64,000 nucleotides of DNA from a virus. The stretch is taken from positions 10,966 through 74,965 of IMG/VR virus record IMGVR_UViG_3300021963_008193, one strand, 5' to 3'. The position numbers were made by a program, and so were the translations under genes. The notes beneath the pieces were generated by a model. That model was not told the origin of the DNA. It worked only from the letters and a program-made list of their open reading frames with translations, and ran no database searches. Positions 29,046 to 55,741 of this stretch are shown piece by piece. Numbering within the stretch: the stretch's first letter is position 1; the number at the start of each line of letters is the position of its first letter.

Positions 29046-29049
29046 AATG

Positions 29050-29598: not shown

Positions 29599-29599
29599 A

Positions 29600-30190
29600 T
29601 TATATTCCTGTTGAACCGAACCCATTATCTCCTCGGTCTTTTTCGTTTATTTTATTTTTTTGTACTAAATTAACCCATTTACCATTAACAACAGGACAAA
29701 GGACTGCTTGTCCTATTTTCATACCTTTAGTGATTGTTACAGGATGATTATTCGTATTAAAAATAATTCCTTTAACTTCACCCGTATAACCATTATCAAC
29801 AGTCCCTGGAGAATTTAAAATCATTAGTCCTTGATTAATAGCTAAACCGCTTTTTGACCTAACTTGAATTTCGTATCCGTCTTTAATGTCAAATGACAAT
29901 CCTGTCGGAACTAACGCTCTCCCAAATGAGGGGATAATTACCTCCTCAATAGCATGTAAATCAAACCCCGAATCTGTTTCGTAATTATATTTTGGTGTAT
30001 ACGCTTCAGGATTTAATTTGATAAACCCTAAATCTAATTGTGGCGTATAGTTCTCCATTTCCTCTTCTAATGATTTCATATCAAGACCATGTTCTTGTAA
30101 TATTTTGTCATAGTCTAACTCAGAATCATCGGTTTGTAATAGATATTCTTGTAGTTTTTCTGATTGTTCTTTTAGTGAATCTAAATTCAT
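29600..30190 (-). CDS. dut: Trimeric dUTPase with acidic N-terminal extension
   Basis: SGFDL, R.KSGLA, NSPGTVD.GYTGE, IGQAV and RG..GFGSTG motifs. Confidence 0.95.
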   Translation of the reverse strand: MNLDSLKEQSEKLQEYLLQTDDSELDYDKILQEHGLDMKSLEEEMENYTPQLDLGFIKLNPEAYTPKYNYETDSGFDLHAIEEVIIPSFGRALVPTGLSFDIKDGYEIQVRSKSGLAINQGLMILNSPGTVDNGYTGEVKGIIFNTNNHPVTITKGMKIGQAVLCPVVNGKWVNLVQKNKINEKDRGDNGFGSTGI

Positions 30191-34896: not shown

Positions 34897-37710
34897 ATGC
34901 CGAGTCAAAATATAAATCAATACGTGTATCCTAACCTATTTCCAAAACTTGCTTTGGAAAGTCACGACATGTCTTTAACATCGGATGAGTTAGGTTTTAA
35001 TCAAGAGGTTGTTTTTTCACCTTATTTGATTGCACAGACTTATGGTAACCGACTTCCTTTTTACTTTGATATTAATAATAGTGAAACGGTACAAAATCTA
35101 AATTTAACTTATAAAAATTATAATCGAAATAATATTTTTGTTTCTCAGAACTATTATAACCCCGATAAAAAAGACTTAACTTGTTTTACAGGGATGAGTT
35201 CTTGTGACATTGGATTAACAGGAATAGATAATGGTTTAGTTACTCAAATGACGGGTCAGACTATTACATTCACTAATGGTTTATTACCTGACACATTAAA
35301 ATTTGATAGGTTAAGTTTTGACAGAAGATTAAAATTATTTCAAGTAACTGGAAACACATCAAACAATATTAGATTCTCAGGGTTCGATAAAACCATTCTA
35401 TATGAGGTTGTAAGTAAATACAGTCCTTATGAAGGTAAATACCATGAATTATATGGTGGGTTTTATCAAGGATTTTATAAGTTATTTGGTTATGATTATG
35501 AAATTTTTCCTGAAAGAATGAACAAAGGATGGGCGGTTGAGATGATTCTAAAACCAAGACTATTCAATGAATATACACCATTACCAAACGAAACAACCTT
35601 AAATGATTTGTACCCTGGTAATAAAAATACTTTCTTTTATTTCGGGACTCGAGCGGAAAATAAATTCTATCATCATGCTGATGGTACTCCAAATTGTTTT
35701 ACAGGTTATACAAGAGTTACGTCTCCTTTAACAGGTTTAAGTACTTGTGCATGTTGTAATAAAACAATCACAGATAGTCGTTGTATCTATGTTTACCCTC
35801 CAAGGTCTGTTGATGGTAAACATGACCCACATATTAATTACGGTTGTAAATTATGTAATGGTGATAAAACAAAAAGTTTAACATGTGGTTGTAATTGTGG
35901 TGATTATGGTTGTGAGGATTGTGGATGGGAATGTCAAACACATGTTTGTCCTCCTGAACCATCACCTACACCAACCCCAACACCGAGCCCAACGCCTACA
36001 AGTGACGGGTGCATCCCAAAACCTGTGTGCACACCAACATGTACAACATGTGATACTTGTACAGATTGTATTGATTGTGCATCTACAGGTTATACTTCAG
36101 TCGAAGATACTTGTGAAAAAGACCCGTTATATGACGCAATGTCAAACGCGTTATCTTTTAGACTTTGTGGTGACCCAAAAAACCCACAAATTGGTGTAAA
36201 AGTTTTAAGGTTTACAGGTGATTGTACAACAACAGGTTCTTGTTCTACATCAGGAATAACATATACAACAGGTTATACGGTAACTGAATATTGTACACCA
36301 CCAATTTATCCAAGATGTCAAAAAGAAAATCCTGCTTGGTTAGAACAAGAACATTGGTTCCAACTTGATGCGGTATGGGAGAGATATACATGGTTGGATT
36401 ACTGCGATTTAAATTATAGGGGTGGTTTAGGTGACATAACAAAAGAATTTTATCTTGAGTCATTAGCCAATAATACTACTTCATTAGTAACTGCACAATA
36501 TACTCATTCAGGAACAACTCCACCACAACAAATCGAACTTGTTAATTTAAACGAGAAATGGTTACTTGATAAACATTATAGAAAAGGTAGATTAAAATTT
36601 TACATTAACGGTAAAATTTTCCATACGTTGGAGGATTTTGAAGAACTTATTCCAAGAGCGTTAAACACTGATAAAGAAAAACAGGTTGGTGTTCCGTTTA
36701 ATGTATCGTGGGGAGGTGGTACTCAAGGACTAAGAGAGAATTTAACGTTCTCATCTATGACATTACCATACGGACCTTATATTCAAGACCCTGAATGTCT
36801 CCCAATTAATGATTTAACAGGTACAACATTTAACGGTTTAAAAACAAATATTCAAATAGAACAAAACTTTGCTGGTAACTTTGAAGGTGGAATTTCCCAA
36901 TTCAGAATGTATGTGGAACCATTATCAGCACCTGAAGTAAAACACAACTTTAAATTATTAAAGAATATCTTTAGGATGTTTAATCCTGATTGTCCTGATT
37001 GTTCGACTGATGTTTGTTTAACTGATGATTTCACTTATGACATTGTTGAAAACCCACAACAATTAGGAAGAATACACATTCCTGATAACAGAGATAACAA
37101 ATATTTGATTGAGAATAAATTAACTTTAAAACCATCATTACTAACCTCAAAAAATTGGGAGGACAATATTTGGTGGGGAAACCAAGGTCAGACACCTATG
37201 TGTGTTGGATATGCTTGGGCTCATTGGATTGAGGATGGCCCAATTACTCACAAGTCAAAAACTCGACCTGTTGTTTCACCAATTCTAATTTATAAAGAAG
37301 CGCAAAAACTTGATGAATGGGTTGGGGAAAATTATGATGGAACATCTGTTAGAGGTGGTGCGAAATATTTAAAAAAGACAGGAAAGATATCATCATATCT
37401 TTGGACATTCGACCTTAATGTTATGATTAATACTGTTTTAACAGTTGGTCCTGTTGTAGTTGGTACTAATTGGTATAACACCATGTTTTATCCTGACCGT
37501 AATGGTCTATTAAGAGTTGGTGGTAGAGTTGCAGGAGGTCATGCTTATGAAATAAATGGTGTTGACACGGTTAAACAATTATTTAGAATCAAAAATAGTT
37601 GGGGTAGAACTTGGGGTCAACAAGGACACGCATATATATCGTTCTCTGATATGAGAAGATTAATTAACGAAAACGGTGAGGTTTGTTTAGCCGTTGAAAA
37701 TAGATTTTAA
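34897..37710 (+). CDS. Putative structural protein: LamG-like and Cys-rich region fused to a C-terminal papain-like (C1) cysteine peptidase
   Basis: LKFYING and F.GGISQFRMY (LamG-like); NQGQTPMCVGYA, GGHAY and IKNSWGRTWG..G.AY give Gln/Cys/His/Asn catalytic residues. Confidence 0.8.
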   Translation: MPSQNINQYVYPNLFPKLALESHDMSLTSDELGFNQEVVFSPYLIAQTYGNRLPFYFDINNSETVQNLNLTYKNYNRNNIFVSQNYYNPDKKDLTCFTGMSSCDIGLTGIDNGLVTQMTGQTITFTNGLLPDTLKFDRLSFDRRLKLFQVTGNTSNNIRFSGFDKTILYEVVSKYSPYEGKYHELYGGFYQGFYKLFGYDYEIFPERMNKGWAVEMILKPRLFNEYTPLPNETTLNDLYPGNKNTFFYFGTRAENKFYHHADGTPNCFTGYTRVTSPLTGLSTCACCNKTITDSRCIYVYPPRSVDGKHDPHINYGCKLCNGDKTKSLTCGCNCGDYGCEDCGWECQTHVCPPEPSPTPTPTPSPTPTSDGCIPKPVCTPTCTTCDTCTDCIDCASTGYTSVEDTCEKDPLYDAMSNALSFRLCGDPKNPQIGVKVLRFTGDCTTTGSCSTSGITYTTGYTVTEYCTPPIYPRCQKENPAWLEQEHWFQLDAVWERYTWLDYCDLNYRGGLGDITKEFYLESLANNTTSLVTAQYTHSGTTPPQQIELVNLNEKWLLDKHYRKGRLKFYINGKIFHTLEDFEELIPRALNTDKEKQVGVPFNVSWGGGTQGLRENLTFSSMTLPYGPYIQDPECLPINDLTGTTFNGLKTNIQIEQNFAGNFEGGISQFRMYVEPLSAPEVKHNFKLLKNIFRMFNPDCPDCSTDVCLTDDFTYDIVENPQQLGRIHIPDNRDNKYLIENKLTLKPSLLTSKNWEDNIWWGNQGQTPMCVGYAWAHWIEDGPITHKSKTRPVVSPILIYKEAQKLDEWVGENYDGTSVRGGAKYLKKTGKISSYLWTFDLNVMINTVLTVGPVVVGTNWYNTMFYPDRNGLLRVGGRVAGGHAYEINGVDTVKQLFRIKNSWGRTWGQQGHAYISFSDMRRLINENGEVCLAVENRF

Positions 37711-37713: not shown

Positions 37714-39255
37714 ATGAGTCAAAGTATTATTATACGAAGTATTAACTACGATGGAGAAATGGCAAACATCCTCTTCAACCCATACGGGGAAGAAACTGTT
37801 TTTAACTTAGGGGACCATAACCTCCCATTCGTATTTAACCCTTCATTATTAGAACCACCAAAAGATGTTTATGGTACATACACTATTTTAGTATTAGGTT
37901 CCGATTGCCCAAATTTTTTAAATGTCCCAAGACCTACACCTACACCTACACCAACTCCGAGCGTTACTAAAACATCAACACCTACTGTTACCCCAACAAT
38001 TACCCCAACACCTACATTTGACCCTTGTAAAGTTCCAACTCAAACACCAACAGTAACTACAAGTCCAACGGTAACACCAACAATGACCATGACACCTAGT
38101 CAAACTTGTACTAATCCTTGTGGATGTCCTGAACCAAGTAAAACACCTAAACCTCGTAAAACACCTACACCTACACCAAGTGCCACAAGTGGGTACTGTT
38201 ATCCTACTCCAACACCTACACAGACAATAACTCCAACAAATACTATAACACCTACACATACTGCGACGCCGACTATAACACCAAGTACATCACCATTAAC
38301 ATGTGATTTTACTTATGAAATTTTAGATGTGACAAATACCCCAACTCCAACCCCAACAATTACACCTACAATATCATTAACTCCCACAATGACCCCAACT
38401 AACACCATTACACCAACCCCTACGGAAAGTCTTACACCAACCCCTACAGTTACACCTACTGAATCATTAACACCAACTCCAACACCTACCATTACTCCAA
38501 CCAATACCCTAACACCAACACCAACAATAACACCTACGGAATCATTAACACCAACGCCAACACCAACAATAACTCCTACGGAATCATTAACACCAACACC
38601 AACACCAACAATAACCCTCACACCAACCTCAACCTTAACCCCAACACCTACGCCTACACCATATAGAAATTTCTTAATTACAAATTTAGATACTGATGGT
38701 TGTGTTGTTTCATCTATTGGAGCTAATTTCAGTACGATGTTTAATTTCTCTTATCCAATTATAAATGGACAAAGTGGTAACGGATTCTTGTATTCAAACA
38801 TTGTAGGAGACTATATGACTTTTACAATAACAGGAGGTACTGTTAATGGTGTTAATGTTTATGAGAATGGTATATTGACTAGCGGATTTACAGGATTTGA
38901 CCCAGTAACGTACACCTACTATCTAACTCAAACTATTGGTGATAATGATTTATTGTACGTTGAGGTATTTAACCCTTTAAATCCACCGAGTCCAACCCCA
39001 ACAATAACCCCTACAATTACACCAACTCAAACAATAACCCCTACAATTACCTCAACTCAAACATTAACCCCAACACCTACCTCGACTCAAACATTAACTC
39101 CAACACCTACCGAAACTTTAACCCCTACCCCGACTATCACACCAACTGAAACATTAACTCCGACTCCAACTCCGACCGATACAGGAAGTTATCTATTACA
39201 AGCAAATGGATTCTTCGTTTTACAGGCGGATGGGTCAAAGATTATAATAACATAA
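37714..39255 (+). CDS. Pro/Thr-repeat fibre-adaptor-like protein
   Basis: N-terminal domain homologous to the 39913 ORF; long PTPT tracts; C-terminal YLLQANG...LQADG motif. Confidence 0.65.
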
Positions 39256-44516: not shown

Positions 44517-47500
44517 ATGATTGAAATAACAGGGGCAACGGGCTCAGGGCCATATGATATTATTATATGTGACATTACGTTGACATATTGTTACCCCGTT
44601 GCTTATTCTGTCTCAATTCCACCAACATATTACGCAACAATTCCATCTGAACTTGAGGGGGTTACTCAAGTTGCGGTTCAATTAATTGATTCTTTAGGTT
44701 GTCCTTGCGTTCAGATATGTGATTGTCCAATACCGTCAGTTACACCAACGTTAACACCTACGGTTACGCCGACAATGATTGTTGAATGCAATTGTATTAC
44801 ATTTGAAAACACTTTATCGGACCCACAAGATTATACATATACAAATTGTGATGGAACTGTGATTTACGGTTCTATTTATGGTGAAACTTCACTTTATGTT
44901 TGTGGTAAATTACCAAGTACAAATAGTGAATATGTTAATATAACAATCTCTTCATTTTGTGTTGGAGGTTCTTGTCCTCCACCAACACAAACACCAACAC
45001 CAAGTATCACCCCAACAAATAGTTTACCACCAATTACTGGTATTTTTGAAGACTGTTGTGACCCAACAAATATAATGGCTATTACAACAATACCATTTAG
45101 TTTTTATCCTTTATCAGGAGTTTATTACGTTGAGAGTTCAGGATTTAATGGTTGTGTGAATTTATTAACAACAACATTCTATGATAATGTTTATACTTAT
45201 GTTGACGCAACAACCTTTATTGATTGTATGGATTGTCAAATATCATACCCATGCTCAACTCCTACACCAACAATGACCCCAACTAATACCACAACCCCTA
45301 CATTTACACCGACAAATACCCCAACAATGACAGAAAGTCCTACACCGACACTTACTCAAACTATTTCACCAACAATAACTCCTACAAATACAATTACCCC
45401 AACGTTAACTCCTACAATAACCCCAACAAATACATTAACCGTTACTCCAACTAATACAATTACTCCAACTAATACTATCACACCTACAAATACGATTACA
45501 CCAACTAATACTATCACACCAACCCATACAATTACCCCAACAAATACTATCACACCTACAAATACTATCACACCTACAGTAACTCCAAGTATTTCATTGA
45601 CACCTACTCAAACAGTGACACAAACCCCAACTCAAACCATAACCCCTACTATTTCATTAACACCAACTAAAACTGTAACACCAACAATAACTGCGACTAT
45701 TTCATTAACACCAACTAAAACTGTAACACCAACAATTTCATTAACACCAACTAATACTATTACCCCAACAATAACTCCTACAAATACGATTACGCCTACT
45801 CAGACTATTACACCTACAAATACTATTACACCAACTCAGACTATTACACCAACTCAAACTGTAACACCATCAATAACACCTACAATATCATTATCACCTA
45901 GAAATACCTCAACGCCTACTCAAACTATTACTCCAACCGTTACTCCGACAATTTCGTTAACACCAACGATTTCGTTAACGCCAACACAAACCCCAACTAA
46001 AACTACGACCCCTACAATTTCGTTAACACCAACACAAACTCCGACTAAAACTACAACCCCTACAATTTCATTAACCCCGACACAAACTATAACGCCAACA
46101 GTTACCCCTACAATTTCACTAACTCCAACTATTTCATTAACTCCGACAAGAACAATTACACCAACTGTAACCCCAACTATTTCATTAACTCCAACTAATA
46201 CAAATACTCCAACAATAACACCTGCTCGTACATCAACCCCAACTCAAACAATTACCCCAACAAATACTTTAACACCTACTAATACAGGTACTCCTGGTGT
46301 TTCTGTAACTCCTACAATTTCATTAACTCCAACACAAACTATAACACCGACAGTTACTCCTACAATTTCATTAACTCCAACACAAACTATAACACCGACA
46401 GTTACCCCTACAATTTCATTAACTCCAACACAAACTATAACACCGACAGTTACCCCTACAATTTCATTAAGTCCAACAATATCACTAACACCTACGATTT
46501 CATTAACTCCAACCAATACCCCAACTAAAACTGTTACACCAAGTATCACATTGACACCGACAAATACAAATACTCCGACAATGACAATTACACCAACTGT
46601 TACACCTACAATTTCATTAACTCCAACTAATACAAATACACCGACTCAAACACCAACTAAAACTACAACACCAACTATCTCATTAACACCTACAATATCC
46701 TTAACGCCAACGATTTCGTTAACTCCAACTCAGACTATAACTCAAACAGTAACACCTACGATTTCATTAACTCCAACAATATCCTTAACGCCAACTAACA
46801 CTCAGACACCAACTAACACGCCTGCACGTACATCAACCCCAACACAAACATTAACTCCAACAGTGACTCCAACAATATCCTTAACGCCAACGATTTCATT
46901 AACACCAACAATTTCATTAACCCCTACTCAAACAATAACGCCAACTAATAAATCACACCGACAGTTACACCTACAATTTCATTAACACCAACTAATACGG
47001 GAACACCAGGAAATTCTGCAACACCAACACAAACATTAACCCCTACCCAAACTCCGACTAAAACCGTGACACCAACGATTTCATTAACACCGACTCAAAC
47101 ATCTACAGTAACTATTACTCCAACAATTTCATTAACACCAACACAAACTCCGACTAAAACTGTTACACCAACAATATCATTAACTCCAACCCAAACAATT
47201 ACCCCAACTGTTACACCGACAATTTCATTAACCCCTACAATATCGTTAACTCCAACCCAAACAATTACCCCAACTGTTACACCTACAATTTCATTAACTC
47301 CAACTAATACAAATACACCGACTCAAACACCAACTAAAACTACAACACCAACTATCTCATTAACACCTACAATATCCTTAACCCCAACTAGAACTATTAC
47401 GCCTACAATATCGTTAACACCGACTCAAACACCAACTAAAACTACAACACCTACAATTTCGTTAACTCCAACGATTTCATTAACTCCTACAATTTCGTTA

Positions 47501-48316
47501 ACTCCAACGATTTCATTAACTCCAACTATAACCCCAACACCAACTATAACTCAAACACCAACAAAAACAGTAACACCAAGTGTTAGTAATAAACCTACTG
47601 ACACACCTGCGGTAACTCCTACAATTTCGTTAACACCAACCATAACACCAACAAAAACTGTTACTCCGACCATAACACCAACAAAAACTGTTACTCCGAC
47701 CATAACACCAACAAAAACTGTTACTCCGACCATAACACCAACTCCAAGTGCAACATGTCTTACTTATCGTTTAACGGCGGGTAAAACTAATGCCACTTTC
47801 ACATTCACACCTTGTTGTGGGGAACCAACAACATCACCTGTAACACTTGTAAGTACTGATAGTATTGACGTTTGCTCAACAACATTACCAACAACTGCAA
47901 ATCCTGGAGCAACGATAGTTGGACTGAATACCCCATGTACATTATGTAATGATGCGATAGTGGCGATTAATTATAGAACGTCTAATAGTGGAACAACCAC
48001 AAGCCAAACAGGAACTTTAAGTTACACATTAAATGGGGGGTCACCTATAGTGATAAGTTCAATACTACGGTCAAATTTAGGGACAAATTATGTTGGTTTT
48101 ACTCCTATTACATGTAATTATGGTGACGTTTTAGTATTTAATTTTTCAGCAAATGTTGGTGGGGATAATTCATGGGGTGTTGGTAACTTAGGACCATATA
48201 ATAATATTGGATGTTTTACGGCAAACGATTACACCTATACCGTGACATCAACAGGTCTTACTAATCTATACTTCAACATTACTTCCCAAAATACCATATG
48301 GGGGGCAACTTGTTAA
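44517..48316 (+). CDS. Mucin-like Thr/Pro-repeat protein with Cys-rich ends, about 1266 aa if joined; split by a 1-nt frameshift near 46950
   Basis: Track ORFs 44517-46985 and 47066-48316 share [12 protein letters not shown] repeats. Adding one C at AAT-A[C]A-ATC (46950/46951) restores [15 protein letters not shown] and a single frame. Confidence 0.8.
45255..47750 (+). repeat. Degenerate ~18-nt coding repeats (TPTxxx hexapeptides)
   Basis: About 2.5 kb of ACN-CCN-ACN units. Confidence 0.95.
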
Positions 48317-48375
48317 TTTAAGTAATCTATTTATTTTAAACGAAAACAAATTACTTTTTTCATAAAAAAAGAAGT

Positions 48376-49623
48376 ATGAGAATATTTGTGCAAATCGCAT
48401 CCTACAGGGACCCCCAATTATTACCGACAATAAAAAATATGTTTGAAAATGCTAAGAAACCTAAAAATTTGGTTTTAAGTATTTGTAGACAATATCATCC
48501 TGAAGATGGTTTTGATAATCTTGATGAATACAGAGATGATGATAGATTTAGAATTATTGATATTTTATATTCGGAATCAAAAGGAGTATGTTGGGCAAGA
48601 AATTTAACACAACAACAATATCAAGGTGAGGAATACACTTTACAGATTGACTCTCATATGAGATTTGAAAAGAATTGGGACGATACCCTAATAAAAATGA
48701 TTAAACAACTTCAAAAGAAAGGATTTGAGAAACCATTATTAACAGGTTATGTTTCTTCTTTTGACCCCGATAATGACCCGCAAGGAAGAATCCAAGAACC
48801 ATGGAGAATGGTATTTGATAGATTTATTCCTGAAGGTGCGGTTTTCTTTTTACCTGAAACAATACCAGGGTGGAAAGAAATGAAAGAACCTGTAACCGCA
48901 AGATTTTATTCTGCTCACTTCGCGTTTACAATAGGTAAATTCAGTGAAGAGGTTCAACACGACCCTGAATTTTATTTTCATGGTGAAGAAATTTCAATTG
49001 CCGCAAGAGCTTACACTCATGGGTATGATTTATTCCACCCACATAAAGTAGTGATTTGGCACGAATATACTCGTAAAGGTAGGACCAAGCAATGGGATGA
49101 TGATAAAGAATGGGTTAAGAAAAATGATGTGTCTCATGCCAAAAATAGACAACTATTCGGAATGGATGATGAGGAAGTTACATTAGAATTTGGTAAATAC
49201 GGTTTTGGAACTGAAAGAACATTAAAAGAATATGAAATTTATTCAGGGTTGAGGTTTTCAAGAAGAGCGGTTCAACAATATACTTTAGATAAATTATACC
49301 CACCAAACCCTCAGGTTTTTGATACTGAAGAAGAATGGGAAAATAGTTTTGCGAGTATCTTTAAACATTGTATCGATGTTGGATTTTACCAAGTCCCTGA
49401 AAAAGATTATGAGTTTTGGGTAGTAGCGTTCCATGACGAAAATGACGAAACCATTTTTAGAAAAGATGCTGACATACATGAGATTAATCGAATGATGACA
49501 GACCCTGATGGGTATTGTAAAGTATGGAGAGATTTCCAAACAACACATAAACCAAAATATTGGGTAATATGGCCTTATAGTACATCAAAAGGTTGGTGTG
49601 AAAGATTAACAGGAAATTTATAA
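48376..49623 (+). CDS. GT60-family polypeptide N-acetylglucosaminyltransferase-like (Gnt1/OGNT type)
   Basis: IFVQIASYRDP, S.GVCWAR, Y.GE.Y.LQIDSHMRF..NWD, SAHFAF and F.GEEI....RA.THGYD motifs. Confidence 0.88.
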   Translation: MRIFVQIASYRDPQLLPTIKNMFENAKKPKNLVLSICRQYHPEDGFDNLDEYRDDDRFRIIDILYSESKGVCWARNLTQQQYQGEEYTLQIDSHMRFEKNWDDTLIKMIKQLQKKGFEKPLLTGYVSSFDPDNDPQGRIQEPWRMVFDRFIPEGAVFFLPETIPGWKEMKEPVTARFYSAHFAFTIGKFSEEVQHDPEFYFHGEEISIAARAYTHGYDLFHPHKVVIWHEYTRKGRTKQWDDDKEWVKKNDVSHAKNRQLFGMDDEEVTLEFGKYGFGTERTLKEYEIYSGLRFSRRAVQQYTLDKLYPPNPQVFDTEEEWENSFASIFKHCIDVGFYQVPEKDYEFWVVAFHDENDETIFRKDADIHEINRMMTDPDGYCKVWRDFQTTHKPKYWVIWPYSTSKGWCERLTGNL

Positions 49624-49627
49624 TTAT

Positions 49628-50299
49628 ATGAACACATTTAATTTACCAGAGTTAGAAACTCTAATTTACGAAAAAACAAATAGTTTTATTATCATTGGGG
49701 CCTTTGATGGGGAAAGTCATGATAATTTTTTTACTAAAATACAAGAAAAACCAAATAAAAATAACAATACGATAATTTTTGTAGAGCCCGTAGAAAAGTA
49801 CTACAACGAGTTAACAAAAAAAGTTAGTTCATTGGTTAATTATAACGTTATATGTGAGAACACGGCAATTTCAGATAAAGTTGAGTCTATTGAAATGGTT
49901 TCTGTTAAACCTAATTTATTGGATAAATACGGTTGGTATATAGAAGGGTGTGCGTGTGTTGTTGAGAACAATACCCCGTTAAATATCTACATGAAAGAGG
50001 TAGAGGAAATCGACATTGATAGAGAAGAAATTACAACTATTACGTTTAATGATTTATTATTTAAACATGGTTTACCTACCATCGATTTTTTACAAATTGA
50101 TACTGAAGGTTATGATGAAAGAATTTTAAATACCATTAATTTTGAATCATTGAACATCAAATTTATAAAATTTGAAAGACATTATTTAAGTGAAGGATTC
50201 ATCGAGGTCTTTATAAATAAATTAGAGGTACTTGATTATTCATATTATTGGGACAATGATAATTACTACTTTGTTAAAAATTCAATTATTAATGGCTAA
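49628..50299 (+). CDS. FkbM-family methyltransferase
   Basis: IGAFDG, FVEP, NTAISD and IDFLQIDTEGYD motifs. Confidence 0.88.
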   Translation: MNTFNLPELETLIYEKTNSFIIIGAFDGESHDNFFTKIQEKPNKNNNTIIFVEPVEKYYNELTKKVSSLVNYNVICENTAISDKVESIEMVSVKPNLLDKYGWYIEGCACVVENNTPLNIYMKEVEEIDIDREEITTITFNDLLFKHGLPTIDFLQIDTEGYDERILNTINFESLNIKFIKFERHYLSEGFIEVFINKLEVLDYSYYWDNDNYYFVKNSIING

Positions 50300-51869
50300 T
50301 ATATCTTTTTACGGTTCACATAACTCTTCCGTTGTTGTTGAGAACAATGGTAAAATATTAACGGTTATTGAAGTTGAGCGTTTTTTAAACGTTAAAAATG
50401 CGGGGTATGGACAATATCTAACTTCCAATACAAGATTCTTTTTAATAAATGAAATTTTAAAATATATTAAGAACGAATATGGTATAAGTGAATTTGAAAC
50501 TTGTTACTACTCTAATACAGATACAATTGAAGGCCCTACTAAGGTTCATTATGAAAAAATGATACCCGCTAAAAATTATGTAAATGTTTTACACCATCTG
50601 TCTCACGCGGCTTGTGCGTTTTACCAATCAAAATATAATGAAGGGTTAATTGTTTCATTTGATGGTGGTGGTAGTGATGGGTTTTTTAACATATATCACG
50701 CAAAGAATCGAGATGAAATTATTTTAATTGATAAATTTAATATTGATTTAGGGTTTGCATATATGTCATTTGGTGATTACTTAAACGATATAAGACAGGA
50801 GCCTGCATTAAACATTGGTAATTTAGTTTATTCAGGTAAAATAATGGGATTATGTTCTTATGGTACAATTAACGAAATGTGGTTACCTTATTTTGAGAAA
50901 TATTATAGAGCAAAACCTGATGGTTTAAATTATTTAGAATTATTAAATCAATTAGGTGAAGAAACTGGTTTAATATTTAATCGTAATGATAGGTTAACAG
51001 GTCAAACATCTTGGGACGTTGCTAAGACTTCACAAATCGCTTTTGAAAATGTTTTTATGGAGATAATAACTCCATTCTTAGAAATGTTTCCTAAATTACC
51101 TTTATTATTAACGGGGGGTTGTGCTTTAAATATTTTACTAAATACAAAATTATATCATGAATTAGAAAGAGATGTATTTGTCCCGCCAAATCCAAATGAC
51201 TGTGGGATGGCTTCAGGTATGATTTTATTACATATGAAACCTAAAGAGGTTATTGATTTAACGTATTCAGGGATTCCAATTTTAGATAAAAATACATTAA
51301 TGATGATTTCCGAAAATCAATATAATACCACCCCAATAGATACCGACACAGTTGTTAATGATTTAGTTTCAGGTAAAATTATTGGTGTTGTTAGAGGAAA
51401 CTCGGAGCATGGACCAAGAGCTTTGGGGAATAGAAGTATAATTTGTGACCCATCTCACCCTGATATGAAAGACATACTAAATACCAAAGTTAAAAATAGA
51501 GAGTGGTATCGACCATTCGCACCTGTTTGTAGATTAGAAGATGTTTCTAAATACTTTAAATTTAGTGGTGAAAGTAGATGGATGAGTTTTTGTCCTGAAG
51601 TACGAGAGGAATGGAGGGAAAAATTAACCTCAATAACACATATTGATGGGACCGCTAGAGTTCAAACAGTAACCAAAGAAGAAAATGAATGGTTATATAA
51701 TTTAATAACCGAATTTGAAAAGGTTTCAGGAATTGGGGTTCTTCTAAACACATCATTTAACGTTAATGGTAAACCAATATTATCAACCTATAAAGACGCG
51801 TTACATGTATTTAAAACCACACAAATGGATAAACTAATATTGGAAGATTATTACATAATTAACAAATGA
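50292..51869 (+). CDS. O-carbamoyltransferase (NodU/CmcH family)
   Basis: HHLSHA, DGGG, GKIMGL, GGCALN, EHGPRALGNRS, RE.YRPFAP, TARVQTV and LLNTSFN motifs. Start moved to ATG 50292. Confidence 0.93.
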   Translation: MANISFYGSHNSSVVVENNGKILTVIEVERFLNVKNAGYGQYLTSNTRFFLINEILKYIKNEYGISEFETCYYSNTDTIEGPTKVHYEKMIPAKNYVNVLHHLSHAACAFYQSKYNEGLIVSFDGGGSDGFFNIYHAKNRDEIILIDKFNIDLGFAYMSFGDYLNDIRQEPALNIGNLVYSGKIMGLCSYGTINEMWLPYFEKYYRAKPDGLNYLELLNQLGEETGLIFNRNDRLTGQTSWDVAKTSQIAFENVFMEIITPFLEMFPKLPLLLTGGCALNILLNTKLYHELERDVFVPPNPNDCGMASGMILLHMKPKEVIDLTYSGIPILDKNTLMMISENQYNTTPIDTDTVVNDLVSGKIIGVVRGNSEHGPRALGNRSIICDPSHPDMKDILNTKVKNREWYRPFAPVCRLEDVSKYFKFSGESRWMSFCPEVREEWREKLTSITHIDGTARVQTVTKEENEWLYNLITEFEKVSGIGVLLNTSFNVNGKPILSTYKDALHVFKTTQMDKLILEDYYIINK

Positions 51870-52759
51870 AAAATACAAAACTAGTTACATCGTTTTACAC
51901 CGAAATAGACGGACACCCATTTTACGGACATGCCGAGCAATCAAGACACGAAAGATATTTACATTCTATGAGAGTTCTAAATAACATGGGGATTGAGATT
52001 GTCTGTTATTGCAATGATACTCAATTAGAGTTATTAACAGAGTATGTAAGTGAATTCAATCTAAATAACATTACATTAAAAGTTTCTAATTTATCTGATT
52101 CACTATTTGCTAGTCGAATGAAAGATATTAAAGAAAAAACTAATAATTTTAAATTTTATCATGAAGTTGATTGGAACAAACTTTTTTTATTAGAAAAGGA
52201 ATATGATGAAAGTTATGACTATCTGTATTGGATTGATGCTGGGTTATCTCACCATGGAATATTTCCTAAAAAATATAATCCGAATTCTCATTTGGCAACA
52301 GGGATGTCAAGTGACTTTAACACATATTCATTTACAAATCTGTTTACTAAGGAATTATTCGGAGGAATAAATAACTTTGTCGGAGACAAATTACTTAGTT
52401 TAGACAATGAATTAAAATTCCATAACATTTACGAACTAAATGAAGTTCTTGAGGGTAATTTTACATTTGATTCATTATCCGTTGGGGGAATAATCGGAGG
52501 TCATGTGAGTAAGATTAAATGGTTAATTGATAAGTTTAATTTAATGGGTGAGAAGTCGTTAAGTAAAAATGTAATTTTAAATCACGAAGCAATAATTTCA
52601 TTTATCAAGGAAGAAACCCCTGAGAATTTCGAAAGATTTATTTTCCAAACATGGTATCATGAAGATACTGAAGGTATGGATGATTATATAATAAAAGAAC
52701 AAATACACTTTAGTCATTTTTTTGATATGATTAATGAAAAACATATAACAAATAATTAA
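51866..52759 (+). CDS. HtrL/YibB-like putative glycosyltransferase
   Basis: TKLVTSFY, K.FLL, YWIDAGL and GGIIGG motifs. Confidence 0.7.
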   Translation: MKNTKLVTSFYTEIDGHPFYGHAEQSRHERYLHSMRVLNNMGIEIVCYCNDTQLELLTEYVSEFNLNNITLKVSNLSDSLFASRMKDIKEKTNNFKFYHEVDWNKLFLLEKEYDESYDYLYWIDAGLSHHGIFPKKYNPNSHLATGMSSDFNTYSFTNLFTKELFGGINNFVGDKLLSLDNELKFHNIYELNEVLEGNFTFDSLSVGGIIGGHVSKIKWLIDKFNLMGEKSLSKNVILNHEAIISFIKEETPENFERFIFQTWYHEDTEGMDDYIIKEQIHFSHFFDMINEKHITNN

Positions 52760-52760
52760 C

Positions 52761-55133
52761 ATGGATAATTTTTTTGATAAGTCATTACATTTTTTAGGGA
52801 AAACTAACAATACCATAACCGCATTAAACATTGGGTCAATGGACGGTGTGATGTTCGATGAAATGATTGGGTATACTCAAATGTATAATTTTAAAGTTCT
52901 ATATGTTGAACCAATACCTTATTTATTTGACAGATTAAAAAGTAATATTGGTGACGGAGGGTTATTTGAAAATAGTGCAATATCTGACTACGATGGTGAG
53001 ATTGAGATGATGACAATTGATAGAGAAGTTATTGATAGTGGTTTAGTTCACAGTTGTTTTTATGGTATGAGTGCCGTTTATCCCCCGAAAAATGGTTTAG
53101 GTAGTGAATTTGATAAACCTACCGTTGAGAAGTATGGTAAGTTGGTTAAGGTCCCATGTATCACATTTGATACATTGATGAATAAACATAACTTAAATGA
53201 TTTTGATATTGTCAAAATTGATGCTGAAGGACACGACTTCAAAATTTTTAAACAGATTGACTTAAAAAAATACACCCCAAAAGTGGTAAGGTTAGAATGG
53301 ATTAATTTATCTGAACAAGAACAGTCAGAAATAATTGAAATCTTTAATTCTAACAATTTTATTTATGAGATATCAGGTCAAGATATTGTTGGTTTACCAA
53401 AAGATTTTTATGATGAAATAAATTCATTGACATCACCTAAAAATATAAAACAAAATACAGGGGTCACTTTAGTTACAGGTTTATGGGATTTGGGTAGAGG
53501 TGAACTAACTGAAGGATGGTCAAGGTCATATGAAAATCATTATTTAACTAAATTTAGTGAACTATTAAAGACAGAAAATAACCTCATCATTTTTGGGGAT
53601 TCTGAATTAGAAGAATTTGTGTGGGAAAGAAGAGAAGCGTCTAATACCCAATTTATTAACAGAAATTTAGGATGGTTCAAAAATAATGAATTTTATGAAA
53701 ATATCCAAACAATTAGACTAAACTCTGATTGGTATAATAGGGTGGGTTGGTTAAAAGAATCGGCACAAGCAAGATTAGAATTCTATAACCCACTCGTCAT
53801 GTGTAAAATGTTTTTATTACATGATGCAAAAATCTTAGATAAATTCAATTCGGATTACATGTTTTGGATTGATGCTGGATTAACCAATACTGTTAATTCA
53901 GGTTATTTTACACATGATAAAGTTATTGATAAGCTGCCTAACCTTATTAATAAGTTTACATTTATTACATTCCCTTATGAAACAACTTCTGAAATACATG
54001 GGTTTGAGTTTAATAAAATATGTGAGTTTGCGGGTGACAAAGTTAATAAAGTTGCAAGAGGAGGGTTCTTTGGTGGACCTAAAAATACTATAACAGAAAC
54101 TAACAATTTATATTACCAATTATTAAACACAACATTATCAAGTGGATATATGGGAACTGAAGAAAGTATCTTTAGTATTATGATATACAAATACCCTATG
54201 TTATTTGATTATTCGGAAATTGAGGGTAATGGTTTAGTTTGGTTATTTTTTGAAAAACTTAAAAATGGTAAGATAAATCTTAAAAATGAATTAAGTGGTG
54301 ATGAGGTTATTCGAATTAAAGATATGACTAAAGTAGGATTATATGTTATAGGGTTTAATAGTCCAAAACAATTTGAGACTTTATTGTTCTCAATGAAAAA
54401 ATATGATTCAAATTTTTTAGATAAACCTAAAAAATATCTATTAGATAATTCAACAGACTTATCGACAACTGAAAAATATTTAGAACTTTGTAAGGAACAT
54501 AATTTTGAACACATTAAAAAAGATAACTTAGGAATTTGTGGTGGTAGACAATTTATTGCCGAACACTTTGATAAAACAGATTTAGAATATATGTATTTTT
54601 TTGAGGATGATATGTTCTTCTACTCAAAACAAGGTGATGTTTGTAGAAACGGGTTTAACCGATATGTCGATAACCTTTATAGTAAATCACTTTCAATAAT
54701 TGACAAGGAAAATTTAGATTTTTTAAAGCTAAACTTCAGTGAATTTTATGGTGATAATTCAACTCAATGGAGTTGGTATAATGTACCACAAGTTGTTAGA
54801 GAAGAAATATGGCCAAATAATAAAAAACTACCTGTACAAGGATTGGACCCTAATGCCCCAAGAACAAAATTCGAAAGTATTAAATCACATCAAGGGATAC
54901 CGTATTCAATAGGTGAGGTCTACTATTGTAATTGGCCTCAGATAGTTTCAAAAGAAGGTAATCGTAAAATGTTTTTAGAAACGACATGGGGACATCCGTT
55001 TGAACAGACATGGATGAGTCACATATACCAAGAAACAATCAAAGGTAAAATCAAATCAGGTATATTATTATTAACTCCAACAGAACATGATAGATTCGAT
55101 TTTTACGAGAGTTCGTTAAGAAAAGAAAGTTAA
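52761..55133 (+). CDS. Triple fusion: FkbM methyltransferase + HtrL-like GT + GT-A domain
   Basis: IGSMDG, YVEP, KIDAEG.D; then TLVTGLWD, FWIDAGL, GGFFGG, GTEES; then LLDNS, NLGICGGR, FFEDD. Confidence 0.82.
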   Translation: MDNFFDKSLHFLGKTNNTITALNIGSMDGVMFDEMIGYTQMYNFKVLYVEPIPYLFDRLKSNIGDGGLFENSAISDYDGEIEMMTIDREVIDSGLVHSCFYGMSAVYPPKNGLGSEFDKPTVEKYGKLVKVPCITFDTLMNKHNLNDFDIVKIDAEGHDFKIFKQIDLKKYTPKVVRLEWINLSEQEQSEIIEIFNSNNFIYEISGQDIVGLPKDFYDEINSLTSPKNIKQNTGVTLVTGLWDLGRGELTEGWSRSYENHYLTKFSELLKTENNLIIFGDSELEEFVWERREASNTQFINRNLGWFKNNEFYENIQTIRLNSDWYNRVGWLKESAQARLEFYNPLVMCKMFLLHDAKILDKFNSDYMFWIDAGLTNTVNSGYFTHDKVIDKLPNLINKFTFITFPYETTSEIHGFEFNKICEFAGDKVNKVARGGFFGGPKNTITETNNLYYQLLNTTLSSGYMGTEESIFSIMIYKYPMLFDYSEIEGNGLVWLFFEKLKNGKINLKNELSGDEVIRIKDMTKVGLYVIGFNSPKQFETLLFSMKKYDSNFLDKPKKYLLDNSTDLSTTEKYLELCKEHNFEHIKKDNLGICGGRQFIAEHFDKTDLEYMYFFEDDMFFYSKQGDVCRNGFNRYVDNLYSKSLSIIDKENLDFLKLNFSEFYGDNSTQWSWYNVPQVVREEIWPNNKKLPVQGLDPNAPRTKFESIKSHQGIPYSIGEVYYCNWPQIVSKEGNRKMFLETTWGHPFEQTWMSHIYQETIKGKIKSGILLLTPTEHDRFDFYESSLRKES

Positions 55134-55180: not shown

Positions 55181-55741
55181 ATGGAGTTTTATATCAAAAA
55201 AAACGCAACCTTACCTATAATTAAATTACAGGTTGTTAAAGACGGAAGAAGTGAATACAACAATTTTATGAATTTGATTGAGGTATCCGCTTTGTTCTTT
55301 TCTATGGTTGATGTTGAGACGGGTATACCAAAAATAACATCTAGACCTGCAGGATTTGTCGAGAAATTATTTGATGAACCAAACGCCGAACCTGAGTATT
55401 ACATATATTACCAATTTACGAATAGAGATACCAGTAAAGTTGGTAGATATGAAGGACAATTTATGTTAAGAAGTGATGACGGAACTTTAATTTTACCTAT
55501 CCGTGAAAAACTTTATATTAATGTCCAAGAATCGTTCATTGCGGATGACTTAGAATACGAAACTTGTTATACTTCAGAATTCCCTTGTTGTGTTAATGGA
55601 CCATTTGTAACTCAAACAACTACAACTCCGTGCCCAAGTTGTCCAACATGTCCCCCACCAACTCCGACACCTTTACCTACAACCACCACCACAACCTCTA
55701 TATTCTCTACAACAACAACGACTACTCTTTTTATTGGTTAA
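55181..55741 (+). CDS. Putative structural protein (BppU-N-like Ig fold) with Cys/Pro/Thr tail
   Basis: F.IK.N.TLP and YQF...DT...G.Y.GQF pattern; TATTTAT upstream. Confidence 0.5.
   Translation: MEFYIKKNATLPIIKLQVVKDGRSEYNNFMNLIEVSALFFSMVDVETGIPKITSRPAGFVEKLFDEPNAEPEYYIYYQFTNRDTSKVGRYEGQFMLRSDDGTLILPIREKLYINVQESFIADDLEYETCYTSEFPCCVNGPFVTQTTTTPCPSCPTCPPPTPTPLPTTTTTTSIFSTTTTTTLFIG

Follow-up and report, generated by a model that had tools for sequence, protein, structure and literature searches.

A putative cytoplasmic O-glycosylation module next to a Thr/Pro-repeat fibre gene in an uncultured T4-like jumbo phage

Background

Why would a bacteriophage place a set of sugar enzymes directly behind a fibre gene? 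An uncultured T4-like jumbo phage raises this question. In its genome the gene of a fibre-like protein of 1,266 residues, two-thirds of which are Thr/Pro repeat, is followed directly 3' by genes for a soluble GT60 transferase and for putative extending and capping enzymes. We analyzed a stretch of 64,000 nucleotides of this genome (the window).

The original prediction was that the phage primes, extends and caps mucin-type O-glycans on its own fibres in the cytoplasm. It is partly supported: the GT60 identity and the pairing with Thr/Pro genes held up, and the cytoplasmic setting fits; the term "mucin-type" is possibly too narrow. Judging from the sequences, the best reading of the locus, and a reasonably probable one, is that the phage O-glycosylates its own Thr/Pro stalks in the cytoplasm. 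Other phages, and bacteria belonging to several phyla, show the same pairing of GT60 with Thr/Pro sequence; a sugar coat that the phage makes for its stalks is therefore probable. One new finding is a conserved core of GT60 and a two-domain HtrL/GT-A gene, present in 80 IMG/VR relatives, in the cultured XacN1/RAS14 jumbo phages and in bacteria.

The repeat gene and the enzyme block

The predicted arrangement, a repeat-protein gene and then a block of five enzyme genes, was found gene by gene, and the family calls were confirmed with Pfam, PHROG and hhalign (Table 1). After GT60 come genes for an FkbM methyltransferase, a NodU/CmcH carbamoyltransferase, an HtrL-like transferase and an FkbM, HtrL and GT-A fusion. 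The further Thr/Pro tracts reported for ORFs 8156/8812, 34897, 37714 and 55181 are also present.

Table 1. Features of the locus and related features elsewhere in the window
Feature	Position	Strand	Evidence or remark
Fibre-like Thr/Pro-repeat protein, candidate glycosylation substrate	44517..48316	+	One 1,266-aa gene after adding C behind 46950
N-terminal part: three small Cys-containing modules (18 Cys)	44517..45254	+	Short conserved TPTPTP linkers between modules
Thr/Pro repeat stalk, residues 247-1080	45255..47755	+	834 aa, composition count
C-terminal 186-aa domain, 9 Cys	47756..48316	+	Presumed distal head of fibre
GT60 (PF11397) transferase, soluble; putative polypeptide alpha-GlcNAc-transferase priming Thr	48376..49623	+	Pfam, motifs
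FkbM-family methyltransferase, putative sugar O-methylation	49628..50299	+	PF05050, 42.3 bits
NodU/CmcH-type carbamoyltransferase, putative sugar O-carbamoylation	50304..51869	+	PF16861 215 bits, PF02543 79 bits
Stand-alone HtrL-like glycosyltransferase, putative GT6-like GT-A fold	51866..52759	+	hhalign, conserved WIDAG motif
Three-domain enzyme FkbM/HtrL GT-A/GT2-like GT-A	52761..55133	+	Pfam, alignment, AF2 model
p186: conserved 140-aa N-domain and Thr/Pro/Cys tail	55181..55741	+	Comparison with relatives
p513, fibre-adaptor-like, about 350 aa Thr/Pro stalk, further candidate substrate	37714..39255	+	phrog_15511
Structural-module protein, short Pro/Thr linker, C-terminal papain-like peptidase	34897..37710	+	PF00112, phrog_16701
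Two small ORFs with Thr/Ser/Pro tracts, downstream of major capsid gene	8156..9357	+	Tract scan
Second sugar-enzyme set: GT2, double GT2, GT2_4/GT92-like enzyme, Methyltransf_24	23265..29625	-	

The repeat protein had been listed as two ORFs (44517-46985 and 47066-48316), whose frames lie one base apart at about 46950. Logan contigs of two sequencing runs (X1 and X2) carry an extra C behind this position, and with it the sequence is a single ORF of 3,801 nt and 1,266 aa uninterrupted by a stop. Thus the apparent break is a C missing from the contig, and the gene is intact. The N-terminal part is the conserved element directly upstream of GT60 in relatives (tblastn matches in 39 loci); an alignment of 22 homologues shows invariant Cys and invariant T76, T78, T80 and T82. 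The stalk is 43% Thr (362 Thr) and 18% Pro and includes 39 copies of TPTISL. The C-terminal domain matched no Pfam family and has homologues only in two of the relatives' loci (L003 and L039). The position of the Thr/Pro proteins in the fibre module suggests that they are located in the virion.

In relatives, a p186 homologue always comes after the enzyme block, with a tail that is longer or carries a papain-like domain. ORF 8812-9357 includes 130 aa of PTTP-type tract. The second sugar-enzyme set possibly belongs to the same glycan pathway.

ORF 48376 had been called GT60-like, and it matches PF11397 ("GlcNAc", the Pfam model of CAZy GT60) with 244.5 bits (E 3e-72) at a cut-off of 21 bits; it also matches phrog_24687 (E 8.5e-171). 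The DSH and HPH motifs are invariant in its phage homologues down to 39% identity. Its structural model is poor (pLDDT 67), with matches that mix teichoic-acid transferases and polypeptide GalNAc-transferases; a C-terminal beta-rich domain (residues about 330-415) has a pLDDT of about 90. We know of no characterized prokaryotic or phage GT60 enzyme, therefore the donor and acceptor proposed here are taken from eukaryotic relatives. The characterized enzymes, from protists, transfer alpha-GlcNAc to polypeptides, which is the first step of mucin-type O-glycan synthesis on Ser/Thr-rich domains (PMC8724618). By this precedent, GlcNAc is the putative first sugar.

The carbamoyltransferase gene most likely starts at ATG 50304 (MANISFYG...) and not at TTG 50232, because a bacterial homologue (L160) has the same N-terminus. 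The protein is 64-68% identical to its Jiulongibacter and Arcticibacterium homologues. ORF 51866-52759 matched no Pfam family; compared alignment against alignment, it is homologous to the HtrL domain of the fusion (hhalign probability 99%, E 1.9e-18). The fusion consists of an FkbM domain (residues about 1-205, 61 bits in Pfam), an HtrL GT-A domain (about 234-500, HtrL_YibB, 60 bits) and a C-terminal GT2-like GT-A domain (about 520-790) with NSTD and EDD motifs. A confident AF2 model (pLDDT 87.7) has two GT-A folds, in agreement with the predicted "GT-A" assignment. Residues 234-790, which have invariant columns in the alignment, correspond to the conserved partner of GT60. The best two-domain structural matches (Foldseek, VIA) are LARGE1, LH3, COLGALT1, mimivirus R699, K4CP and PmHS2. 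As the partner enzyme shares the two-GT-A architecture of LARGE1, LH3, R699 and glycosaminoglycan polymerases, the glycan could be a longer proteoglycan-like chain, for which "mucin-type" may be too narrow a name.

With a highest 19-residue Kyte-Doolittle mean of 1.47, the enzymes, p186 and both terminal domains of the fibre protein are free of membrane-helix-like segments. The block enzymes are soluble, which fits the predicted cytoplasmic setting.

Conservation of the module in phages

The gene order in 80 IMG/VR relatives is upstream fibre gene, GT60, variable cassette, HtrL/GT-A, p186 and DNA polymerase. The expectation that GT60 and Thr/Pro-repeat genes co-occur and stay adjacent was borne out in 49 of the 80 close relatives, in which the ORF immediately preceding GT60 encodes a Thr/Pro tract of 40 aa or more (observed lengths 47-1,770 aa); the adjacency in one lineage is a single inherited arrangement and not 80 independent events. 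Counter-evidence comes from the other 31, which encode no long Thr/Pro tract at this place. Homologues of the upstream gene that lack a long tract retain a TPTPTPTxTPTPTPT linker. Between GT60 and the two-domain enzyme, genes are freely exchanged, which is what one would expect if diversifying selection acts on a surface glycan. This cassette includes DegT aminotransferases, an acyltransferase, FkbM, GT10, GT25, GT7C and RXYLT1-like genes and a nucleotidyl-transferase.

The adjoining DNA polymerase gene and the T4-like nature of the phage bring to mind the T-even phages, in which DNA is glycosylated. Enzymes that glycosylate hypermodified bases against restriction would also agree with a weak match (E 0.0057) between the C-domain of the fusion and phrog_842, which carries the annotation T-even hmC glucosyltransferase, and phage GTs are reported to make a variety of glycans on DNA (Pyle 2024, as cited in PMC12619734). 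However, four near-complete relatives each encode a single thymidylate-synthase-family gene, with ThyA-type PCH, GPVYGKQWR and LGLPFNIASY motifs in both synthases inspected, and none of the four has a second, hydroxymethylase-like copy for hmC/hmU. Because these relatives encode ordinary thymidylate synthase only, and the same module stands in bacterial chromosomes beside exported Thr/Pro proteins, DNA is a very unlikely target.

The operon GT60-CarbT-p297-HtrL/GT-A is kept in cultured XacN1/RAS14-like jumbo phages, ORF334 of XacN1 being a GT60 homologue with 48% identity. XacN1 carries only short TP linkers. Its virions contain at least two periodic-acid-Schiff-positive glycoproteins, seen as bands not assigned to genes (PMC5852040, Suppl. 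Fig. S4). Sites coding for (TP)3 number 11, 44, 34, 28, 43, 29 and 19 in seven GT60-positive phage genomes (0-1 in reversed-pattern controls) and 0 in five GT60-negative T4-like or jumbo phages (1.8 Mb in total), a contrast based on two GT60-positive lineages.

The stained XacN1 proteins, found together with short linkers only, would suit a module that glycosylates virion proteins such as capsid or tail subunits, the Thr/Pro tracts being mainly plain spacers that share the fibre module. GT60 is indeed retained in relatives that lack a long tract in the upstream gene, and in mycobacteriophages the glycosylated sites are at the C-termini of capsid and tail-tube subunits, at least as cited in PMC12619734. 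We consider this explanation unlikely in view of the zero (TP)3 count in GT60-negative phages and of the characterized GT60 enzymes, which act on Thr/Ser-rich mucin domains (PMC8724618). Moreover, the Thr/Pro proteins that adjoin bacterial modules share nothing else, so the tract is the common factor.

Reverse sampling found PF11397 in eight of 44 viral contigs picked only by a (TP)6 pattern, including six of the ten contigs of at least 60 kb. It is absent from the other 36, two complete viruses of 57-61 kb among them; thus Thr/Pro linkers exist without GT60. Enzymes of the NodU/CmcH and FkbM families also work in secondary metabolism. Both points would agree with unmodified linkers and with enzymes that make a soluble or unrelated glycoconjugate or small molecule, and a survey reads cyanophage carbamoyltransferase clusters as metabolite pathways (PMC7824862). 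This seems rather improbable, as the block includes no scaffold-forming enzyme (PKS, NRPS, cyclase) and family precedent for GT60 points to protein acceptors. The (TP)3 contrast among phages and the enrichment of Thr/Pro ORFs beside bacterial modules also argue against it.

The module in bacteria

According to record titles, bacterial genomes of several phyla keep GT60 beside an HtrL/GT-A gene. Thr/Pro-rich ORFs occur at 0.127 per kb within 1 kb of the bacterial module and at 0.018 per kb in the outer flanks (a difference of about 7-fold). Such an ORF lies within 1 kb in 17 of 80 bacterial loci; the 63 loci without one are counter-evidence. A twin-arginine-like leader was recognized by motif, with weak HMM support, at 10 of the 17. 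Twin-arginine export is compatible with cytoplasmic modification before export. These Thr/Pro proteins are otherwise unlike one another, with twin-arginine-like leader, PqqD, fn3 or BNR contexts. A Cytophagales isolate has the same GT60-CarbT-FkbM/HtrL/GT-A operon beside a Thr/Pro protein with a twin-arginine-like leader. The phage module genes are 55-68% identical to Cytophagales genes; by sequence, the phage module is of the bacterial type.

Serotype-converting phages alter the host envelope. A bacterial-type module with a host-like cassette that differs among relatives could likewise remodel the surface of the infected cell (LPS, capsule or exported Thr/Pro glycoproteins of the host), which would block superinfection or change the envelope. 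Members of the HtrL family have otherwise been found in LPS or LOS core loci (PMC4172580), and variable GT clusters of jumbo cyanophages have been read as surface-polysaccharide modification (PMC7824862). Nevertheless, the scanned cluster enzymes include no membrane-anchored initiating transferase, flippase, polymerase, ligase or membrane segment, and the bacterial neighbours are Thr/Pro-tract proteins, not polysaccharide export genes. The block also has fibre genes on both sides, in what looks like a late structural region, and no convincing terminator was found between the fibre gene and the enzyme genes. Thus a role at the host surface is doubtful.

Proposed mechanism

The observed gene identities, folds, conservation and co-occurrence suggest that block 48376-55133 is a soluble cytoplasmic module of protein O-glycosylation. 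Its substrates would be the upstream 1,266-aa protein first and probably also p513, p186 and others. GT60 would move the first sugar (by family precedent, alpha-GlcNAc from UDP-GlcNAc) to Thr of the T-P repeats. The HtrL-like enzyme and the two-GT-A enzyme, with its GT6-like and GT2/GT13-like domains, would then lengthen the chain; they may alternate and build a repeating polymer as LARGE1 and glycosaminoglycan polymerases do. Finally, two FkbM methyltransferases and the carbamoyltransferase would decorate or cap the sugars. We infer from family membership and context what the acceptor and the donor sugars are, how the steps follow one another and that the Thr/Pro proteins belong to the virion. 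Stiffness, protease resistance and camouflage may be the benefits.

Comparison with known systems

The phage enzyme and the GT60 enzymes of Dictyostelium and Trypanosoma cruzi have in common PF11397 (244 bits), a DxH motif and the absence of a ricin-like lectin domain. The phage enzyme also adjoins Thr/Pro-rich mucin-like sequence, the acceptor type of the characterized enzymes (PMC8724618). However, the characterized GT60 enzymes of mucin type are eukaryotic Golgi enzymes, whereas the phage protein is soluble, putatively works in the bacterial cytoplasm and has a C-terminal beta-rich domain.

Mycobacteriophages (Freeman et al. 2023, as cited in PMC12619734) also have GTs near structural genes and modify their own virion proteins inside the host, as is predicted here. 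Their enzymes are of other families, and their sugars, as that citation describes them, are carried by short tails at the C-terminus of capsid and tail-tube subunits. In contrast, the candidate acceptors here are hundreds of Thr/Pro repeat residues in fibre-like proteins, and the tailoring set is much larger.

Chloroviruses and mimivirus, which glycosylate their capsid or fibrils, likewise encode a glycan machinery of many enzymes for virion proteins that does not depend on the host, including multi-domain transferases and methyltransferases, a parallel drawn by the XacN1 authors too (PMC5852040). These giant viruses infect eukaryotes and have N-linked or otherwise atypical glycans, and the literature covered describes no GT60 or Thr/Pro pairing in them.

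Two GT-A domains per chain (predicted here for residues 234-790) also occur in LARGE1, LH3/COLGALT1, mimivirus R699, E. coli K4 chondroitin polymerase and PmHS2. The full-length two-domain matches have Foldseek E-values of 7e-11 to 5e-8 and VIA Z of about 13, with only 8-12% identity and a different domain orientation (whole-chain rmsd 18-25 A); many GT-A enzymes match a single domain equally well (Z 13-15.5). Polymerase activity of the two-GT-A enzyme is hypothetical.

In the serine-rich-repeat adhesin system of Gram-positive bacteria (GtfA/GtfB), a long Ser/Thr-rich repeat protein is primed in the cytoplasm, soluble GTs encoded beside the substrate gene extend the glycan step by step, and export is dedicated (PMC5578698). 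There the primer is a GT4 pair, the repeats are Ser-rich and export is by the accessory Sec system (SecA2/Y2), whereas here the putative primer is GT60, the repeats are Thr/Pro, the bacterial neighbours carry twin-arginine-like leaders and the phage version has no export step. In function, this adhesin system is the closest counterpart of the bacterial form of the module.

The GT60 enzyme and its neighbours

The first gene of the block, ORF 48376, matches PF11397, the Pfam model of the CAZy family GT60, with 244.5 bits against a cut-off of 21 (E 3e-72), in two stretches (profile positions 2-43 and 94-350). The family assignment made in the original prediction was thus borne out. All the other elements that it had listed (a Thr/Pro gene, further Thr/Pro tracts elsewhere, and FkbM, NodU/CmcH, HtrL-like and FkbM-HtrL-GT-A genes) are also present in the window (see the table for the main ones). 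All 10 phage homologues compared, the most distant at 39% identity, share residues D92-S93-H94 and H221-P222-H223. The DSH triplet is the DxH metal motif of the GT-A core, and the downstream His is present too. The protein has 415 aa, and neither a C-terminal ricin-like lectin domain nor any other Pfam domain was found in it.

The AF2 model of the enzyme, built on a 10-row alignment, reached pLDDT 67. Its N-terminal Rossmann part is confident and its middle falls below pLDDT 50, so the domain fold is only partly seen. A Foldseek search with this weak model matched the GalNAc-transferases GalNAc-T4, T2, T1, T10 and PGANT9 (E 1e-6 to 6e-5), and TarS, RmlT and TarP scored equal to or above them; because the model is poor, this list does not tell which of the two classes, polypeptide GalNAc-transferases or teichoic-acid transferases, is the closer. 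PDB sequence searches with GT60 alone and with profiles A1, A2 and A3 gave no meaningful match.

The GT60 enzymes characterised so far come from protists and are polypeptide alpha-GlcNAc-transferases (PMC8724618). By analogy, ORF 48376 may transfer alpha-GlcNAc from UDP-GlcNAc to Thr/Ser or hydroxyproline of proteins. The evidence that bears on its acceptor is confined to genomic association with Thr/Pro tracts, and it is possible that the sugars go to other sites or that the product is not a protein. A literature search of incomplete coverage, which does not prove absence, turned up no GT60 system described from phages or bacteria.

Residues 234-790 of the fusion protein form the HtrL/GT-A partner of GT60. 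HtrL_YibB (PF09612) is matched in residues 235-487 with 60 bits against a cut-off of 24.1, and the model of the whole partner (pLDDT 87.7) has two GT-A domains. The HtrL domain (model residues 1-267) aligns best to retaining GT6 enzymes; with BoGT6a and blood-group GTA, Z is 13.0-13.3 and rmsd 3.4-3.5 Å over 193-195 residues. According to the model, it would adopt a GT-A glycosyltransferase fold. W136, D138 and G140 are invariant in this domain. For the C-terminal domain the best structural alignments are those to B4GALNT1, POMGnT1 and GnT-I (Z 14-15.5); it carries an invariant N330-S331 in the consensus NSTD and an invariant E382-D383-D384 (EDD). The best full-length Foldseek matches are LARGE1, LH3, mimivirus R699, COLGALT1, K4CP (chondroitin polymerase) and PmHS2 (heparosan synthase), enzymes that lengthen glycans on proteins or polymerise disaccharide repeats.

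The FkbM family (PF05050, cut-off 22.7) is represented by ORF 49628 (42.3 bits) and by the N-domain of the fusion (60.8 bits). ORF 51866 (p297) has no Pfam match, and its alignment pairs with the HtrL domain alignment at 99% probability, which upholds its description as HtrL-like. The carbamoyltransferase, listed as ORF 50232, is a two-domain NodU/CmcH protein (PF02543, 78.9 bits; PF16861, 214.9 bits) that matches phrog_1601 at E 1.8e-122. Its real start is probably ATG 50304 rather than 50232, since a bacterial homologue begins with the same MANISFYG, and its inferred substrate is a sugar hydroxyl.

Coordinates of the main features in the window and in bacterial loci (L numbers)
Feature	Location	Remarks
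gp23-type major capsid protein	3474-5375	PF07068, 248 bits
Repeat gene (fibre-like)	44517-48316	5' of GT60
Repeat gene, part 1	residues 1-246	three small Cys-rich modules
Repeat gene, part 2		834 residues; 43% Thr, 18% Pro; 362 Thr; 39 copies of TPTISL
Repeat gene, part 3		186 residues; Cys-containing C-terminal domain
GT60	48376-49623	
FkbM	49628-50299	
Carbamoyltransferase	50304-51869	from the probable start
p297	51866-52759	HtrL-like
FkbM-HtrL-GT-A fusion	52761-55133	
p186	55181-55741	
Family B DNA polymerase	55834-58623	
Jiulongibacter locus, 1st: UDP-glucose 6-dehydrogenase-like and UDP-xylose synthase-like ORFs	L160 2943-5231	read from translations, not Pfam
Jiulongibacter locus, 2nd: second GT60-like gene		
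Jiulongibacter locus, 3rd: Thr/Pro protein with RR-type, twin-arginine-like leader	L160 6941-7729 (-)	262 aa; ~140-aa Thr/Pro/Ser tract
Jiulongibacter locus, last: GT60, carbamoyltransferase, FkbM-HtrL-GT-A fusion		divergently transcribed
Thr/Pro protein, twin-arginine-like leader	L206 6436-7983	
Thr/Pro protein, twin-arginine-like leader	L199 6424-7998	
Thr/Pro protein, twin-arginine-like leader	L205 9491-10126	
Thr/Pro protein, twin-arginine-like leader	L211 9479-10240	
Thr/Pro protein, twin-arginine-like leader	L184 2147-3061	
Thr/Pro protein, twin-arginine-like leader	L188 2488-3012	
Thr/Pro protein, twin-arginine-like leader	L180 11414-12121 (-)	
Thr/Pro protein, twin-arginine-like leader	L190 6648-7628 (-)	
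Thr/Pro protein, twin-arginine-like leader	L145 2687-3442 (-)	

The Thr/Pro-repeat gene

The repeat gene is listed as two ORFs, and the second frame, open from 46952, carries the repeat on. Contigs of two public runs that hold repeat-gene sequence (83-93% of sampled words) have an extra C behind 46950; the runs are not fully independent of our contig because they may include the sample from which it was assembled. With the extra C the gene is one ORF of 3,801 nt encoding 1,266 aa. The repeat gene is intact, not frameshifted, and the roughly 800-residue Thr/Pro/Ser repeat that had been claimed before the block lies within this single frame. Its anchor-stalk-head layout resembles that of a fibre, and we treat the product as a putative fibre. 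Neither its N- and C-terminal domains nor the N-domain of p186 matched any Pfam model at E up to 10, and no p186 homologue was found among cultured phages.

In some relatives (G001 171262-172359; L038 and L018) the p186 N-domain leads through a Thr/Pro linker into a papain-like peptidase domain, and the C-terminus of window ORF 34897 is a homologue of that domain. Fibre genes seem to exchange modules across Thr/Pro linkers.

Conservation in related phages

A scan of IMG/VR revealed 332 contigs encoding a GT60 relative, the best 80 of them (L003-L082) at 74-93% identity. In these 80 the fibre genes come first, then a gene homologous to the N-terminal Cys modules, GT60, 0.6-9.3 kb of variable content, a homologue of fusion residues ~230-790, p186 and finally DNA polymerase. 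The adjacency of GT60 and a Thr/Pro gene, proposed as a check, is observed in 49 of the 80 loci, where the ORF directly 5' of GT60 has a Thr/Pro tract of at least 40 aa (tracts of 47-1,770 aa; threshold 55% over 40 aa). A threshold of 60% over 60 aa gives only 29/80, which is an undercount, as K-rich tracts, e.g. that of G001, are missed. In loci without a long tract the 5' protein keeps a linker of consensus TPTPTPTxTPTPTPT between Cys modules. Its alternating Thr residues are invariant across 22 homologues, an observation of limited weight because low-complexity columns align easily.

Which sugar genes fill the variable stretch differs from one relative to another; they include DegT aminotransferases, a hexapeptide acyltransferase, FkbM, a HAD/nucleotidyl-transferase fusion and GT10, GT25, GT7C and RXYLT1-like enzymes. 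The carbamoyltransferase is absent from all 80 loci. Its gene (50304-51869) is 64-68% identical to Cytophagales genes and 45-49% to those of the XacN1 group. The carbamoyltransferase pattern suggests a recent exchange of the cassette with bacteria.

The phages similar to XacN1 and RAS14, on the one hand, and bacteria, on the other, are two settings independent of the close relatives. XacN1 and RAS14, cultured jumbo phages of Xanthomonas and Stenotrophomonas, and 13 similar IMG/VR contigs encode GT60 at 45-50% identity. Most of these phages keep an operon of GT60, carbamoyltransferase, p297 homologue and HtrL/GT-A. The XacN1 paper names two glycosyltransferases, ORF328 and ORF334 (PMC5852040), the latter being the GT60 homologue. 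Periodic-acid-Schiff staining of purified XacN1 virions gave at least two glycoprotein bands, the proteins of which were not identified, and the authors suggest that phage enzymes make the virion glycoproteins (PMC5852040).

We also counted sites encoding (TP)3, i.e., alternating Thr-Pro. There are 11, 44, 34, 28 and 43 of them in the window's contig and its four near-complete relatives, 29 in XacN1 and 19 in RAS14, against 0-1 for reversed-pattern controls in GT60-positive phages; none was found in XbC2, Kaldavass, SCTP-2, Flavobacterium phage immuto and LR756508 (PF11397-negative T4-like/jumbo phages, 1.8 Mb), a contrast drawn from small samples with relatedness uncorrected. Among 44 IMG/VR contigs chosen only by (TP)6, PF11397 was found in eight, including 6/10 of those of at least 60 kb (a small sample, kinship uncorrected). 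Thus Thr/Pro tracts also exist without GT60, since 36 of the 44 contigs have no PF11397.

Given these associations, we lean moderately towards the reading that the module glycosylates the phage's own Thr/Pro proteins. The original prediction had itself named action on DNA among the outcomes that would speak against it. DNA glycosylation by the block enzymes is unlikely: each of four near-complete relatives has a single thymidylate-synthase-family gene, with ThyA-type motifs in the two inspected, and no hydroxymethylase-like second copy was found in the four. In the relatives G001 (5332-7607) and G002 (60011-61096) the match to the family model is broken into two or three separate pieces per genome; those of G001 lie in two separate open frames, as if an intein, intron or insertion intervenes. 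Remodelling of the host surface by the block enzymes is possible, although neither a membrane-bound initiating enzyme nor a membrane-like segment was seen among the cluster enzymes.

Bacterial loci

Scanning one genome per prokaryotic species yielded 433 GT60 relatives. In many bacterial loci GT60 adjoins an HtrL/GT-A gene, often with a carbamoyltransferase. Across 80 bacterial loci, Thr/Pro-rich ORFs have a density of 0.127/kb within 1 kb of the module (18 in 142 kb) vs 0.018/kb in the outer flanks (13 in 735 kb). Such an ORF lies within 1 kb in 17/80 loci, from several phyla by record titles. These neighbours have nothing in common but the tract; some have fn3 or BNR domains.

In ten bacterial loci the Thr/Pro protein begins with a leader S/T-R-R-x-F/L followed by a hydrophobic stretch (e.g. 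TRRRFVRLVGG... and SRRQFVKYLVGG...). The twin-arginine call was made by motif and by eye, HMM scores being weak (TIGR01409, E 0.052; formate_TAT, E 0.086; PetC anchor, E 1.4e-4). The leaders suggest Tat export of proteins that would have been modified in the cytoplasm. The twin-arginine pathway carries folded cargo. Such leaders, if correctly recognised, fit the model well, as exported cargo could be folded and hence pre-modified.

The clearest bacterial case is the isolate Jiulongibacter sediminis JN14-9, whose fusion is 55% identical to that of the window over its full length. Its dehydrogenase-like and synthase-like ORFs would supply both donors of LARGE1-type polymerases. They are the sole hint that the partner could be a processive polymerase of an alternating disaccharide.

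Two GT60 paralogues lie close together in L151, L168, L174, L178, L182, L184, L187, L188, L192, L200, L201 and L217, which recalls the multiple pp-alphaGlcNAcT genes of protists. In the Gemmatimonadaceae locus L164 the ORF abutting GT60 (7212-7952) joins a PqqD-type peptide-chaperone domain (PF05402, E 1.5e-7) to a Thr/Pro tail, an unusual combination in which one part resembles RiPP-recognition domains and the other is mucin-like; L158 7143-7937 looks alike by eye.

The phage, its host and gene regulation

The window covers 64 kb of a 74,965-bp viral contig from IMG/VR, estimated by CheckV to be ~26% complete. Near-complete genomes of its closest relatives have 272-322 kb. It encodes a gp23-type capsid protein and a family B DNA polymerase and therefore belongs to a T4-like phage. 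By capsid protein, its closest relatives in culture are Flavobacterium and Microcystis phages, at 41-42% identity only. Known T4-like capsid genes match only 52-57% of the 633-aa capsid protein, in two pieces; it therefore has a large insertion or extension. When the block was compared with GenBank phages by megablast, it gave no nucleotide match; its relatives there are seen at the protein level only, in four records. Several bacterial-MAG contigs bearing near-copies of the block are labelled Saprospiraceae or other Bacteroidota, and these labels hint at a Bacteroidota host. T9SS-associated galactose-binding-like and PKD-like domains (PF23759, PF19408), of a Bacteroidota flavour, occur in the ORF that follows the capsid gene (5542-7677). 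A second group of sugar enzymes (23265-29625, minus strand: GT2, double GT2, GT2_4/GT92-like, Methyltransf_24) lies among nucleotide-metabolism genes.

The T4 late promoter consensus TATAAATA is not enriched in the window (13 found vs 13.3 expected). A TATTTAT box, mostly (G/A)TATTTAT, is located 18-22 nt 5' of the starts 750, 16929 (-), 34003 (-), 34897, 39278, 40213, 55181 and 58973 (-), and may be the late promoter of the window's lineage. A GTATTTAT-like box occurs at -18 to -22 before fibre genes but at -48 before GT60, so co-regulation of the fibre genes and GT60 is not shown. The terminator scan gave a signal at chance level.

Discussion

The best explanation of these data is a soluble cytoplasmic O-glycosylation of the phage's own Thr/Pro tracts. 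A broader reading, which we hold tentatively and at somewhat less than even chances, is that GT60 and HtrL/GT-A make up a prokaryotic system, widespread and so far undescribed, by which Thr/Pro-repeat proteins receive mucin- or proteoglycan-type O-glycans in the cytoplasm. Its products would be Tat-exported in bacteria, and jumbo phages would have taken it over for long, glycan-clad, strain-variable virion fibres. If this joint reading is true, eukaryotic mucin-initiating enzymes have bacterial and phage counterparts with the same job. The glycosylation reading is directly testable because the operon is carried by the cultured phages XacN1, Xoo-sp13, RAS14 and CM1 and by Jiulongibacter sediminis JN14-9. 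Confirmation would for the first time assign a function to GT60 of prokaryotes and phages, and to HtrL proteins outside LPS loci. It would make the common Thr/Pro "linkers" of aquatic phage fibres glycan carriers, establish a bacterial route by which glycoproteins built in the cytoplasm are exported by the twin-arginine pathway, and bear on the origin of eukaryotic mucin-type glycosylation.

Enzymes of the LARGE1, K4CP and PmHS2 type have, like the window partner, two GT-A domains with catalytic motifs in one chain. The likeness is in architecture only, with 8-12% identity and a different domain packing.

Glycosylation of phage particles affects how they are recognised. Phage-encoded virion glycosylation has reportedly been demonstrated by experiment in mycobacteriophages, where phage glycosyltransferases make the virion glycans. 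The window's system, known from genes, is different and much larger: it would have hundreds of potential sites along a stalk whose length could reach hundreds of nanometres, an initiating family characterised so far only in protists and a swappable tailoring cassette. An indirect hint of virion glycosylation of the mycobacteriophage type comes from XacN1, which combines PAS-positive virion bands with an operon homologous to that of the window.
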